Shown here one piece after another: positions 1 to 64,000 of a stretch of DNA of 64,000 bases. A model generated the notes under the pieces. That model ran no database searches and was not told the DNA's origin. It saw nothing but the letters and a program-made list of their open reading frames with translations. The translations under genes and the position numbers were made by a program. Each line of letters begins with the position of its first letter. Position 1 is the first letter of the stretch. This DNA is from an uncultured Actinomycetes bacterium (GTDB lineage Bacteria > Actinomycetota > UBA4738 > HRBIN12). The stretch spans positions 242,043 through 306,042 of the forward strand of contig CAWBAK010000004.1 in NCBI GenBank assembly GCA_963786805.1, in the 5' to 3' direction.

Positions 1-2010
1 GATCCCGCCGCCCACGCCTGCGGCGAGCAGGCGATCGGATAGCTCACCGGACGGTTCGGCGTCCGGCGGGTGAACCCACAGAACAGCTCGGGCAGGCGCA
101 GGTAGTCCGCCTGGACCGCCGCGTCGAACAGCGCCGTGGCCACGCGGTTCGTGGACCGGGCGAACTTGTAGCGCTTGAGTCCCGCGGCGATCAGGGCGTT
201 GTCGTGTGGCCACACGGATCCGTTGTGATAGCTCATCGGGTTGTAGGCAGCCGCCGCCTTGCTCATCGTGCGGATCCCCCAACCGGAGAACATGTCCGGT
301 GAGAGCAGGCGCTTTGCGAGCGCCTGGGCCTTGTCGTCGTCGACGATCCCGCAGTACAGGGCGTGCCCGGGATTGGACGTGATGCTTCGCACCTGCCGCT
401 TGTCGCCGTCCAGCGCCTCCGCGAAGAACTTCTCGTCCTCCATCCAGAAGGCTTCGTTGAACCGGCGCTTGAGCTCCGCGGCGCTGTCTTCCAACCGCTT
501 GGCGTCGTCGGCTCGGCCGAGCGCGCGGTAGACGTCGGCCATCCGGTCTTTGGCGAGGTACGCGTACGCCTGCACCTCGGACAGAGCGATCGGCGGCTCC
601 GCCAGCCGGCCGTCCGCGTGGACGACCGAATCATGTGAGTCCTTCCAGCCCTGGTTCCTCATCCCACGGGCAGACCGGGCCTGGTACTCGACGAATCCGT
701 CGCCATCGAGGTCGCCGTAGCGGTCGATCCACTCCACGGCGGCCTCGGCGGCGGGAAGCAGCTTCTCGGCGAACGCGAGGTCGCCGGTCCACCGGAAGTG
801 CTGCGCGTACAAGATCACGAACCACGGCGTCGAATCGACCGAGCCGTAGTACGGCGTGTGCGGGATGATCCCCGCCCGCGCGAGCTCGCCCTGCCGGATC
901 TCGTGCAGGATCTTGCCGGGCTCCTCGTCGCGCCAGTCGTCGACGACCGTTCCCTGCTTGGCGGCCAGGAGCTCGAGCGCATCCCGCGCCGGCCGTGTGT
1001 TCACCATGAGGAGCTGGTGCGAGGCGATCAGCGCATCGCGGCCGAACACCGTCACGTACCACGGGATGCCGGCCGCGAGCACGGCGCCGTCGTCCGTGTG
1101 CGTGTACAGGGCGCGGAGGTCGCGCAGGCTCCGGTTGAGCAGCTCGTTGAACAGCTCGTTGTCGGTGACGACCTGCGTGGATTCGCGCTCCCACTCCTCG
1201 TAGGAACGGCGGAGCTCGTGGACGGCGTGGTCGAAGTCGACCGAGGATGCCCGGCCGCCCTCGATGATCGGATCGATCGAGGAGCCGATCAGCTTGGTCT
1301 GGTACGGGCCGAGGTGCATCCGGAACACCGCGGTCGCGGCCTCGCCGTCGACGTCGATCCGATCCGGCCGGGACCCGAACTCGATCCGGGTCATGCGCCG
1401 AACCTTGTCGCGCCCGAGGTAGCTGAACTCGATCACGCCCTCCTCGACCACCGGCGGCTCCGGAGGGTCGGACGGCTCGCGCGTCATCCCTCGCACCTCG
1501 AAGATGTCCGCGAAGTCGGCGGCGTAGCGGAACTCAAGGTCGATCGAGACCGGGAACGGGTTGTAGTTCTTCACGCGGACCCGTTCGAACAGCCGCCCGC
1601 TGATCGCGCGGATCCGGCGGATGTTCAGGGTCTGCTGCGGAACGGACAGGATGCTCGCCGTCGTACAGGTCGGGATTCGTCAGGTCGACGTGGGACATGT
1701 AGCCGCGCTCGGACGACGAGGACAGCAGGACCGGGTCGCGGCCGTTGATCGTCAGCCGGAAGTGCGAGAGGAAACGCGTGTCCTTGGAGTAGAGCCCGAG
1801 CCCGTAGTTCCCTCCGTGGTCGAGGTTGCCCTCGAGGTCCGAGTACAGGAACGCGTCGTCTTCCTTGACCGCGAGCGTCTTGCTCGCGAGGTCGGTGACG
1901 AGGACGGGCGTCGCGCCGAGCTCGGGCCGGTCCGCGCCGGGACGTGCTTCGTCGTCCCGAAGACCCGTGTCCGACCGCGGTGGATCTGCGCGGTTCGGAT
2001 CGGCACTCAT
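1..2010 (-). pseudogene. Glycogen debranching enzyme (amylo-alpha-1,6-glucosidase, bacterial GDE family); partial at window edge; single-base insertion frameshift near 1653
   Basis: N-terminal ORF 1534..2010 reads ...RFLSHFRLTINGRDPVLLSSSSERGYMSHVDLTNPDLYDGE and then loses frame. The -1 frame continues with ILSVPQQTLNIRRIRAISGRLFERVRVKNYN. The same frame at the window edge reads ...SYPIACSPQAWAAG, the PQAW motif of the GDE C-terminal domain. Deleting one c in gacggcgagCatcctg restores DGEILSVPQQ. Confidence 0.8.
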
Positions 2011-2104
2011 CTGGGGGTCCGCCCGAGTCTAGGTTCGGCCTGTGCGGCGTTCAATGACATCGCTCACACCATCGTCGCAGGTAGCCCTCGAGATTAGGGC
2101 GAGG

Positions 2105-2983
2105 TCAGGCCCTGGATATCTCGACGCCCGTTGCGCGCACCGGCACCCGCAGGACACGCCATCCCTCACCGGGACCCGGGACCGGGTATCGGTCGCGCTC
2201 GAAGGCGAGCAACGTTGGCCCGCTCCCGGAGACGCACACCGGCACGTTGCCCGCCTGCAGCCGGTCGAACACCTCGCGTACGTCGGGGAAGCGCGCCAGC
2301 CGGGCATCCTGATGGATCCGGTCGCGCATGGCCAGGCGGAGGTGGTCCGGATCGCTCAGGAGACGGGAGAGGGTGAGCGCCGCGTGCCCGATGTTGAAGA
2401 CGGCGACCTCGCGGGAGACGGTCTCGGGCAGGTCCGCTCGGGCGTCCGATGTCGAAAGACGTGCCCGGTCGGGGATCAGAAGGACCGGCCGCAGGCCGGG
2501 GTGGGGCTGGAGCCGCTCGACGTCCTCCCCCGCGACGACGGTGAGACCCCCGAAGACGGCGGCGGCCGCGTTGTCCGGGTGCCCTTCGAGCTCCGATGCG
2601 ACGCGGAACGTCGTCTCCGGATGGTGATGCCCCTCGGCGATGTCGAGCAGCGCGTATCCGAGGGCGATGCCCGCGACCGCGGCCGCGGCGCTCGAGCCCA
2701 GCCCGCGCGCGAGCGGGATCCGGTTCTCCCCGTGCAGATGCAGGCGCGGCAGCGGATGCGTTCGCGTCTGCATGGCCATCGTCTCTACGTGGCGCATCGC
2801 ACGGCTCACCAAGTCGGTGCCGTCGGTCGGGAGCTCGTCCGCGCCCTCGCCCTCCCAGCTGACGCCGGGCTCGGCATCGGTGTCGACCGTGACCTCGTTG
2901 CACAGGTCGAGCGCGAGGCCGAAGCAGTCGAAGCCGGGCCCGAGGTTCGCCGACGTCGCCGGGACGCGCGCGGTCAGCTTCAT
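2105..2983 (-). CDS. thrB: Homoserine kinase
   Basis: 292-aa ORF with the GHMP kinase motif ANLGPGFDCFGLAL and ...GLGSSAA. It lies directly downstream of thrC in the same orientation. Confidence 0.93.
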   Translation of the reverse strand: MKLTARVPATSANLGPGFDCFGLALDLCNEVTVDTDAEPGVSWEGEGADELPTDGTDLVSRAMRHVETMAMQTRTHPLPRLHLHGENRIPLARGLGSSAAAAVAGIALGYALLDIAEGHHHPETTFRVASELEGHPDNAAAAVFGGLTVVAGEDVERLQPHPGLRPVLLIPDRARLSTSDARADLPETVSREVAVFNIGHAALTLSRLLSDPDHLRLAMRDRIHQDARLARFPDVREVFDRLQAGNVPVCVSGSGPTLLAFERDRYPVPGPGEGWRVLRVPVRATGVEISRA

Positions 2984-3020
2984 GTCGCCCTCGTTGCTCC
3001 GGCGCCGCGCGCCTCCGCGA

Positions 3021-4076
3021 TCAGAGACCGAGCTCCGTCGCGACGGCGTGCGCGTCCGCCGGCACCGACGGCGGATGGGCGGCCCCGGTGATCGCCCACT
3101 CGGGATCCTTCAGGCCGTGTCCGGTGAGGACGCAGACCACGGTCGCGCCCTTGGGCAGGTCGCCGCGCTCGGAGATCTGCAAGAGCCCCGCGACGCTGGC
3201 CGCGGAGGCGGGCTCCGCGAACAGTCCCTCGTGGGCGATCTTCCGGTACGCGGAGAGGATCTCGCGGTCGGTGACCGCGAGGATGGCACCCTCGGACTCC
3301 TTCGCCGCCGCCACCGCCTTGTCCCAAGACGCCGGATTCCCGATCCGGATCGCCGTCGCGATCGTCTGTGGGTCCTTCACGGGAGCCCCCGCGACGATCG
3401 GCGCGGCGCCGGCCGCCTGGAACCCGAACAGGCGGGGAGGCTCGTGGATGATCCCGTCGGCCAGGTACTCCGAGTACCCCATCCAGTGACTCGAGATGTT
3501 CCCGGCGTTGCCCACGGGCACGAAGTGCAGATCGGGAGCGCGGCCGAGCGCGTCGACGACCTCGAACGCGAGCGTCTTCTGTCCCTGCAGCCGGTACGGG
3601 TTCACCGAGTTCACGAGCGTGACCGGGTAGTGGGCAGCGAGATCCTGCGCGAGCTCGAGGGACTCGTCGAAGTTGCCCTGCACCTCGAGCACGCGCGCGC
3701 CGTGGACCAGCGTTCCGGCCATCTTGCCGAGCGCGACCTTCCCTTTGGGGACCAGGACCGCGCAGGTGAGCCCCGCCTTCGCCGCGTAGGCCGCGGCGCT
3801 CGCGCTCGTGTTCCCGGTCGACGCGCACACGACGGCCTTCGATCCCTCCTCGAGCGCCTTGCTGATGGCGAGCGTCATCCCCCGGTCCTTGAACGAGGCC
3901 GTCGGGTTCGCGCCTTCGTACTTGAGCCAGACCTCGCATCCGGTCGCCTGCGAGAGCGGCTCGGAGCGGACGAGCGGGGTGCCGCCCTCGCACAGCGTGA
4001 CGACCGGCGTCGCATCGTCGACCGGCAGGCGGTCGCGGTACTCCTCGATGACGCCGCGCCAGAGCCTGGCGGTCAC
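3021..4076 (-). CDS. thrC: Threonine synthase (PLP-dependent). GTG start overlaps the hom stop as GTGA.
   Basis: ORF 3021..4373 contains [32 protein letters not shown]...ASFKDRGMT...[14 protein letters not shown]. The N-terminal 99 codons of the track ORF are Arg-rich overlap with hom. A GTG at 4076 gives [13 protein letters not shown] and a 4-nt GTGA overlap with the hom stop. Confidence 0.9.
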
Positions 4077-63361: not shown

Positions 63362-63365
63362 CGCC

Positions 63366-63704
63366 TCAGAGTGCGTCGGGACCCATCTCGCCGGTGCGGA
63401 TCCGCACCACCTGCTCGACGGGCGTGACCCAGATCTTCCCGTCGCCGATCTTGCCGGTGCGCGCGGCCTTCGTGATCTCCTCCACCACGCTCGAGACCTG
63501 GTCGTCGTCGCACAGGACCTCGATCTTGACCTTCGGCACGAAGTCGACCTGGTACTCGGCGCCTCGGTAGACCTCGGTGTGGCCGCGCTGACGCCCGAAC
63601 CCCTCGACGTCGGTGGTGGTGAGGCCGGCGACGCCGATCCCGCGCAGGGCCTCCTTGACCTCGTCGAGCCGGTGCGGCTTGACGATCGCGACGACCAGTT
63701 TCAC
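63366..63704 (-). CDS. glnK: Nitrogen regulatory protein P-II (GlnB/GlnK)
   Basis: 112 aa: [64 protein letters not shown].... The T-loop Tyr51 context RGAEY is present. It is immediately upstream of glnD. Confidence 0.92.
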
Positions 63705-63744
63705 GGACCCTGCCTCCCGCAGCGAGTGGGGCGCCTAGCTTATG

Positions 63745-64000
63745 TCAGCGCGAAGCGTCTTCCCGCAGAAGCTTCTCGAAGAGGTGGAAGCTCCGGCGCT
63801 CGCGCATCCCCACCCTCTCGTAGAGCCGCGTCGCACCCGTCGGGTTCTCCGAGTCGACGTTCAACAGGACCGATCCCACCCCGAGCTCGGCGAACCCCTC
63901 GAAGCTGCGGAGCAGCAGGGCCTTCGCGATACCCCTGCCTCGCCAGGCGCGACGGACGGCGACGACGTCGATCCAGCCGGCACCCTCGACGAGGCGGCCG
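63745..64000 (-). CDS. GNAT family acetyltransferase, C-terminal part (gene continues beyond the window edge)
   Basis: Minus-strand translation: ...GWIDVVAVRRAWRGRGIAKALLLRSFEGFAELGVGSVLLNVDSENPTGATRLYERVGMRERRSFHLFEKLLREDASR*. Confidence 0.6.
   Translation of the reverse strand, partial: GRLVEGAGWIDVVAVRRAWRGRGIAKALLLRSFEGFAELGVGSVLLNVDSENPTGATRLYERVGMRERRSFHLFEKLLREDASR

Follow-up and report, generated by a model that had tools for sequence, protein, structure and literature searches.

The DNA analysed here, referred to as the window, is a stretch of 64,000 nucleotides (nt) from contig CAWBAK010000004.1 (positions 242,043 to 306,042) of assembly GCA_963786805.1, which belongs to an uncultured Actinomycetes bacterium of the HRBIN12 lineage. 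It contains twelve protein-coding genes that are interrupted by 22 single-nucleotide frameshifts, and these breaks and their origin are the subject of the analysis. The G+C content is 70% overall and 68–71% throughout; the window is densely coding, and two transfer RNAs (tRNAs) were its sole matches in an Rfam scan. By exact-sequence look-up, the proteins of the window were found to be recorded on one 734,269-bp contig in NCBI/ENA, without protein accessions, and their clusters at 90% identity hold 'MAG: ... [Actinomycetota bacterium]' entries (MAG, metagenome-assembled genome) as well as many soil-metagenome proteins. As a 734-kb contig was obtained from such a complex community, we infer that the window originated from a long-read assembly.

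Relatives of the window were collected from three sources. Ten other contigs encode a P-II protein identical to that of the window (63369–63704, minus strand), look-ups of cluster members yielded two longer relatives (L040 and L041), and a genome scan for which the unbroken segment of a UPF0182 membrane protein served as the query returned 29 loci, among which were short-read MAGs and Nanopore-only 'MFD' MAGs. The MFD MAGs were assembled with metaFlye and one round of Medaka (PMC12313526), while the contig names of the close relatives are mostly of short-read style. L041 (95.5% nt identity, and 99.5% locally at the GDE gene described below) corresponds to positions 1–16635 of the window, L040 (89–93%) to 16.4–32.2 kb, L026 (89%) to 28.9–46.7 kb, L011 (87%) to 37.7–43.3 kb, and L001–L005 (89–95%) to 57–64 kb. 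The sole relative at the BPD_transp_2 permease gene was L023 (73%).

The frame breaks were located independently of homology using a Viterbi algorithm on codon usage in six frames, in which frame changes were penalised and the training set consisted of 12 intact open reading frames (ORFs) of the window. Frame changes were called at 1653, 19356, 23407, 25298, 38151, 38339, 38430, 38620, 38816, 42816, 45038, 53434, 58823, 59902, 60346, 60413, 60667, 62119, 62252, and 62413, and each position listed in the initial annotation had a frame change either at it or no more than about 30 nt away. The further candidates (3023, 9526, 27817, 29667, 31707, 63368, and the remaining ones) were rejected, as they are ordinary gene junctions without a net insertion or deletion (indel) relative to the relatives, for which distinct genes are also listed at these places.

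To place the extra bases, the gaps between the window and the DNA of the relatives were listed base by base and local multiple alignments were made. The window has exactly one more base than every relative in the alignment at 18 sites that could be placed exactly (1653, 19352, 23437, 25298, 38338, 38433, 38817, 42813, 58809, 59896, 60346, 60409, 60417, 60680, 62119, 62213, 62253, and 62428). Four events were placed less exactly, with a net change of +1 (modulo 3) at 38605–38636, 45032–45052, and approximately 53422, and a net change of −1 or +2 at 38148–38153. When the relatives' ORFs were searched against the window using tblastn, the same junctions were obtained, and the segments rejoined in the initial annotation were contiguous in the relatives. 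Pairs of fragments also matched consecutive, non-overlapping parts of one Pfam profile, namely positions 5–45 and 57–268 of 269 for BPD_transp_2, 1–95 and 97–193 of 193 for DUF1028, 1–91 and 95–344 of 344 for Zincin_2, and 3–630 (N-terminal ORF) and 631–770 (repaired C-terminus) of 770 for UPF0182. All 22 sites were absent from the relatives at 73–95.5% nt identity. The 22 frameshifts proposed in the initial annotation were thus all recovered by the codon-usage, DNA alignment, and Pfam analyses with the sign proposed and at a distance of 0–20 nt, including the shift of opposite sign near 38147, which may equally be −1 or +2. The affected genes numbered 12 rather than the roughly 14 that had been counted, and the intact genes of the relatives carry the families that had been assigned to them.

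Four affected genes lie in the left part of the window. A gene of the glycogen-debranching type (GDE_N_bis/GDE_C; 1–2010, minus strand), which is cut by the left end of the window, has an extra base at 1653. Its counterpart in L041 is intact (744 amino acids, aa) and lacks this base, and deletion of 1653 opened 669 codons with 97% aa identity. The gene of an AI-2E_transport permease (18552–19836, plus strand) has an extra base at 19352, the deletion of which gave a single frame with 342 residues identical to the intact 381-aa protein of L040. The gene of a 6-phosphogluconolactonase-type protein (pgl, Glucosamine_iso; 22876–23554, minus strand) has an extra base at 23437; it is intact in L040 (225 aa), and the repaired gene of the window was of equal length with 203 of 225 residues identical. 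An ABC exporter gene (ABC_membrane and ABC_tran; 24572–26540, minus strand) has an extra base at 25298 and is also intact in L040 (655 aa), to which the repaired protein was identical at 638 of 655 residues, with a ratio of nonsynonymous to synonymous substitution rates (dN/dS) of 0.087.

The gene of the UPF0182 membrane protein (37908–40796, minus strand) has five events, comprising extra bases at 38817, 38433, and 38338, a net +1 at approximately 38605–38636, and the net −1 or +2 at 38148–38153, which falls inside a variable proline-rich linker. The region 38200–39900 differs from L026 by 17–25%, compared with 6–12% in the flanks; this central-to-C-terminal part of UPF0182 is either fast-evolving or recombined. 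Of the five frameshift events, four are located at the 3' side of this divergent tract, and the fifth is just past it. The DUF1028 gene (with PG_binding; 42243–43113, minus strand) has an extra base at 42813. The gene of a Zincin_2 metallopeptidase with an HExxH motif (44618–45827, plus strand) has a net +1 at 45032–45052, for which 45051 was the best single deletion, and the repaired protein was 96.6% identical to that of L026. UPF0182, Zincin_2, and DUF1028 were each encoded in one frame wherever they were present among the loci of 15 relatives, including four Nanopore MAGs. The BPD_transp_2 permease of a Bmp-type (nucleoside-like) ABC transporter (52657–53632, minus strand) has an extra base at approximately 53422, which was also the best single deletion; with L023 as its only relative, this site has the least precise support of all.

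The other four genes are clustered toward the right end. A histidine phosphatase gene (His_Phos_1; 58535–59183, minus strand) with an extra base at 58809 is intact in L001–L003 (215–223 aa), and its repaired protein was identical at 207 of 215 residues (dN/dS of 0.076). An alpha/beta hydrolase gene (Abhydrolase_11; 59452–60142, minus strand) with an extra base at 59896 is intact in the same three relatives (228–229 aa). The DUF72 gene (60160–60877, plus strand) has extra bases at 60346, 60409, 60417, and 60680. It is intact in L001–L003 (237–239 aa), and the four deletions restored 237 aa, of which 232 were identical to L001. Four frameshifts are therefore present within 335 nt of this gene, yet its protein is 98% identical to that of L001 (dN/dS of 0.055 and synonymous divergence, dS, of 0.17). 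The glnD gene (GlnD_UR_UTase, HD, and ACT; 60874–63361, minus strand) has extra bases at 62428, 62253, 62213, and 62119 and is intact in L001–L004 (827–829 aa); the repaired protein comprised 827 aa, 786 of which were identical (dN/dS of 0.149).

In both DUF72 and glnD, the first three insertions sum to +3, and the original frame is regained until the fourth insertion. The five events in UPF0182 likewise sum to a multiple of three, which returns the last segment to the first frame. These sums are probably coincidental, and they would hide the breaks in the three genes from simple checks of the frame at both ends. That naive ORF calling would be misled here, as foreseen in the initial annotation, is exemplified by an ATG-initiated ORF of 1144 aa (60136–63570, plus strand), which starts in the first DUF72 frame and runs antisense through the whole of glnD. 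This is a spurious 'shadow' ORF that the high G+C content and the first DUF72 insertion allow.

Large genes elsewhere in the window were intact, in agreement with the initial annotation. The tkt, argS, and mreB genes and an ORF of 1297 aa were whole, and ftsH was in one frame relative to the relatives. The 1297-aa nucleotidase/phosphatase-like ORF (46742–50635, minus strand) is also present in L014 and L015. It is missing from the alignments of L026, L013, L017, and L018, which leave a gap between approximately 46.7 kb and approximately 50.7 kb; this indicates a presence/absence difference of about 4 kb among close relatives.

Deletion of the called bases alone, with one base added at 38148, was sufficient to give a single open frame in all 12 genes. 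The repaired genes had the lengths of the relatives' genes, no internal stop, and 79–98% aa identity (90–98% upon deletion of the exactly placed extra bases), and no further lesion (nonsense codon or out-of-frame deletion) was found in any of the 12 genes once the called bases were corrected. For the eight repaired genes with close relatives, dN/dS calculated by the Nei–Gojobori method ranged from 0.055 to 0.21, and for 32 intact neighbours at the same loci it ranged from 0 to 0.42 (pooled value of 0.16). On this comparison of sequences, the restored frames appear to be under normal purifying selection. A collection of 15 billion proteins contained no exact copy of eight repaired proteins (DUF72, histidine phosphatase, alpha/beta hydrolase, pgl, ABC exporter, Zincin_2, DUF1028, and glnD), and the closest members of the DUF72 cluster were at most 98% identical.

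The events were strongly biased in direction, with 21 insertions and one deletion (P of approximately 5e-6 under a 50:50 expectation), so that the description of almost all of them as +1 insertions was borne out. From the alignment to L011, the event at 38150 may alternatively consist of two insertions beside a natural deletion of 6 nt, which would change the count to 23 insertions and no deletion. The initial annotation had reported inserted bases both inside and outside homopolymers. Both kinds were indeed present; however, only two of the 18 exactly placed insertions lengthened a homopolymer, and the other 16 were outside homopolymers. The sites were also clustered, as had been noted, with 11 of the 21 gaps between sites shorter than 500 nt and a dispersion index of 2.4 (P < 0.001 against random placement). 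Clusters were formed by five sites at 38.1–38.8 kb, four at 60.35–60.68 kb, and four at 62.12–62.43 kb, within which the local density reached 0.7–1.3% per base. Substitutions were no more frequent at the DUF72 and glnD clusters than in the flanks, with a mismatch of 4–5% in both.

Several sites are near GGATC, and a shared motif or methylation site was considered and rejected, as no k-mer survived correction for multiple testing against random positions and the top-ranking k-mers did not include GATC. The other uncompensated length differences between the window and the relatives, of one or two bases, were all in intergenic DNA (for example 8001, 15487, 17205, 41847, 45849, and 58513, and 41896 relative to L042, a contig described below). 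The single-base differences at these positions may be either additional errors of the consensus or variation that is natural. An extra G at 63728, in the intergenic G-run 63725–63728 upstream of the P-II gene, was rejected as an error; the run has an equal length in L005 and L010, and the difference is a natural homopolymer-length polymorphism.

One site could be compared with a near-identical sequence from an independent assembly. The Logan contig L042 (2966 bp, run ERR11592904) is 99.46% identical to positions 40539–43505 of the window, and it encodes an intact DUF1028 protein of 286 aa without the base at 42813, which was the only site compared at this level of identity (99.5%). L042 differs from the window by 13 single-nucleotide polymorphisms (SNPs), eight of which fall within 220 bp (42423–42645), about 170 nt from 42813; close strains therefore exist and differ locally. 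L042 also has an extra C (at approximately position 195, corresponding to 43311 of the window) in a C-run of mreB, which cuts the mreB call to a fragment of 59 aa, while the window agrees with all relatives. The extra C looks like an error of L042 itself, and the SNP tract like a stretch in which close strains have diverged locally. Logan contigs recovered for the near-identical strain were L042 (Lon-like/DUF1028) and L043 (Bmp), and runs ERR11592904 and ERR11571147 contain such near-identical contigs; a search for Logan copies of ten further neighbour proteins returned only a 108-aa protein already on L042.

These results can be considered together as evidence that the extra bases are, very probably, errors of the deposited consensus, i.e., an assembly artefact, and not mutations of the organism. 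The initial annotation had left the choice between indel error and gene decay open, and the restored frames, the insertion bias, and the absence of the lesions from the relatives and of base 42813 from L042 decided it in favour of error. A consensus or polishing step would have inserted single bases, some of them scattered and others grouped in a small number of clusters, and each insertion would break a gene that works in the living organism.

The identity of the inserted bases suggests how such errors may have arisen. In seven of the 14 sites with adequate alignments (60409, 60417, 60680, 62213, 62253, 62428, and 42813), the inserted base is the alternative allele of the relatives at an adjacent column, compared with a null expectation of 0.13, obtained when every position of these alignments was scored by the same criterion (binomial P of approximately 0.001). 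At 42813, for example, G is found in L042 and L026, C in L011, and GC in the window. The alleles were seen in relatives from other samples rather than in the source reads. This tandem-allele pattern suggests that co-occurring strains were collapsed in the consensus or during polishing. Reads of co-occurring, slightly different strains would have been piled together and a mismatch rendered as an extra base, so that both alleles of a strain SNP would end side by side in the consensus. Only insertions would result, most of them outside homopolymers and concentrated where reads of a second strain are included. If the extra bases are consensus errors, strain collapse is the most likely specific cause, at about even odds, and we infer this mechanism along with the sequencing technology and the provenance of the window.

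A comparable case was reported for Trypanosoma brucei, in which a collapsed long-read assembly was compared with a phased one and close allelic variants were found to cause wrong read alignments, indel errors, and truncated ORFs (PMC8445201). The resemblance is that half of the testable insertions in the window reproduce the other allele of a polymorphic column next to them. T. brucei is diploid and eukaryotic, and its two haplotypes are known, whereas the present case would involve co-occurring bacterial strains whose presence in the source sample is presumed.

The main competing cause among artefacts is that random read errors were left in the consensus where the coverage of a low-abundance genome fell to few reads. 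The density of 0.7–1.3% per base within the clusters is similar to raw long-read indel rates, and the tandem-allele pattern is missing from seven of the 14 sites. Symptoms of error were also described in related Nanopore MAGs of low coverage (PMC12313526). However, read errors of this kind would be expected to include deletions and substitutions, and the near absence of deletions and the unraised mismatch at the DUF72 and glnD clusters argue against a simple carry-over of raw-read noise; the excess of tandem alleles is not predicted either. Given an artefact, random errors at low coverage are thus a possible cause but the less favoured one.

Indels that fragment genes are well known in long-read assemblies and are the targets of Kastor (PMC12007338) and Polypolish (PMC8812927), and the errors that remain in such assemblies mostly affect homopolymer length (PMC8812927). 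The window resembles these cases in that single-base indels split conserved genes, are absent from the short-read assemblies of relatives, and are repaired by one base each, and in that a very long contig was obtained from a complex metagenome. It differs from them in that 16 of 18 insertions are outside homopolymers, nearly all events are insertions, and the events are clustered. The difference from known long-read indel errors is in the spectrum only, and the pattern is not a biological feature. The authors of the related Nanopore MAGs screened them for Nanopore-associated errors (PMC12313526). In one of these relatives, L017 (OY969934.1, MFD04944.bin.1.31), the homologue of a 360-aa secreted protein of the window (36749–37831) was matched in two frames, the longest single-frame match covering 64% of the query, which may reflect a frameshift error in this long-read MAG of the family as well.

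The frameshifts could also be real mutations of a lineage in gene decay, in which case the 12 genes would be young frameshift pseudogenes. Genome-reducing bacteria such as Mycobacterium leprae carry frameshift pseudogenes, and the window resembles them in having many frameshifted genes beside intact neighbours. The deposited sequence does carry the lesions, and most of the genes hit are non-essential (DUF72, DUF1028, glnD, hydrolases, and transporters), whereas no break is present in tkt, argS, ftsH, or mreB. However, real decay is expected to mix nonsense mutations, deletions, and insertions, to relax dN/dS, and to lower coding density. Nothing of this kind was found in the window, where no gene had any other lesion and the restored frames had the dN/dS of their intact neighbours. 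Decay would also have hit approximately 19% of the genes in a densely coding genome of 70% G+C. Genes with four or five frameshifts (DUF72, glnD, and UPF0182) should also have accumulated many substitutions, which is at odds with the near identity of DUF72 to L001. Bacterial pseudogenes generally show a deletion bias, opposite to the 21:1 excess of insertions, mostly outside homopolymers, observed here. Relaxed selection, extra lesions, and a deletion bias, as expected of pseudogenes, were thus all lacking. Moreover, the lesions were absent from all relatives, with site 42813 absent from the 99.5%-identical L042, and the inserted bases match alleles of other strains at adjacent columns, which a mutational process could not know. 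Gene decay is therefore an improbable explanation.

If the insertions were nevertheless real, approximately 20% of the genes would carry fresh +1 insertions, and a recent insertion-biased mutator or an unknown, signal-free mode of +1 decoding would have to be assumed, which we consider highly improbable. Recoding by programmed +1 ribosomal frameshifting, transcriptional slippage, or another process could keep the genes functional and would account for the nearly uniform sign of the shifts and for the conservation of the restored frames, but it can be dismissed almost entirely, as the sites share no motif, no 0-frame stop or common codon occurs at the shifts (the next 0-frame stops are 81–3222 nt downstream), no A/T run longer than two is present at any site, the tRNAs were the only Rfam matches, every orthologue of up to 99.5% identity is in a single frame without the shift sites, and the marks of prfB-type +1 frameshifting and of transcriptional slippage were accordingly lacking.

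Four points weigh against the interpretation of the extra bases as consensus errors, the last of them against strain collapse in particular. The spectrum is unlike that of textbook Nanopore errors, which affect homopolymer length and are often deletions, with only two of 18 insertions in homopolymers. All sites except 42813 rest on comparisons of sequence with relatives at 73–95.5% identity. L042, the near-identical sequence used for 42813, is not an error-free standard, given its extra C in mreB. The strain-collapse signature is post hoc, as it was noticed after the alignments had been seen, and comprises 14 sites only.

With about one in five genes of the window split or mis-started by ORF callers, the completeness, pseudogene counts, and protein catalogues derived from the record are distorted, and the record should be re-polished or frameshift-corrected. 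Confirmation of the spectrum by reads would point to strain mixtures rather than basecalling as the cause, and long-read metagenomes would then call for polishing that takes strains into account. Biologically, little follows for the organism; all 12 genes are best regarded as intact, and neither pseudogenisation nor the loss of nitrogen regulation (glnD) or of transporters should be inferred from the frameshifts.

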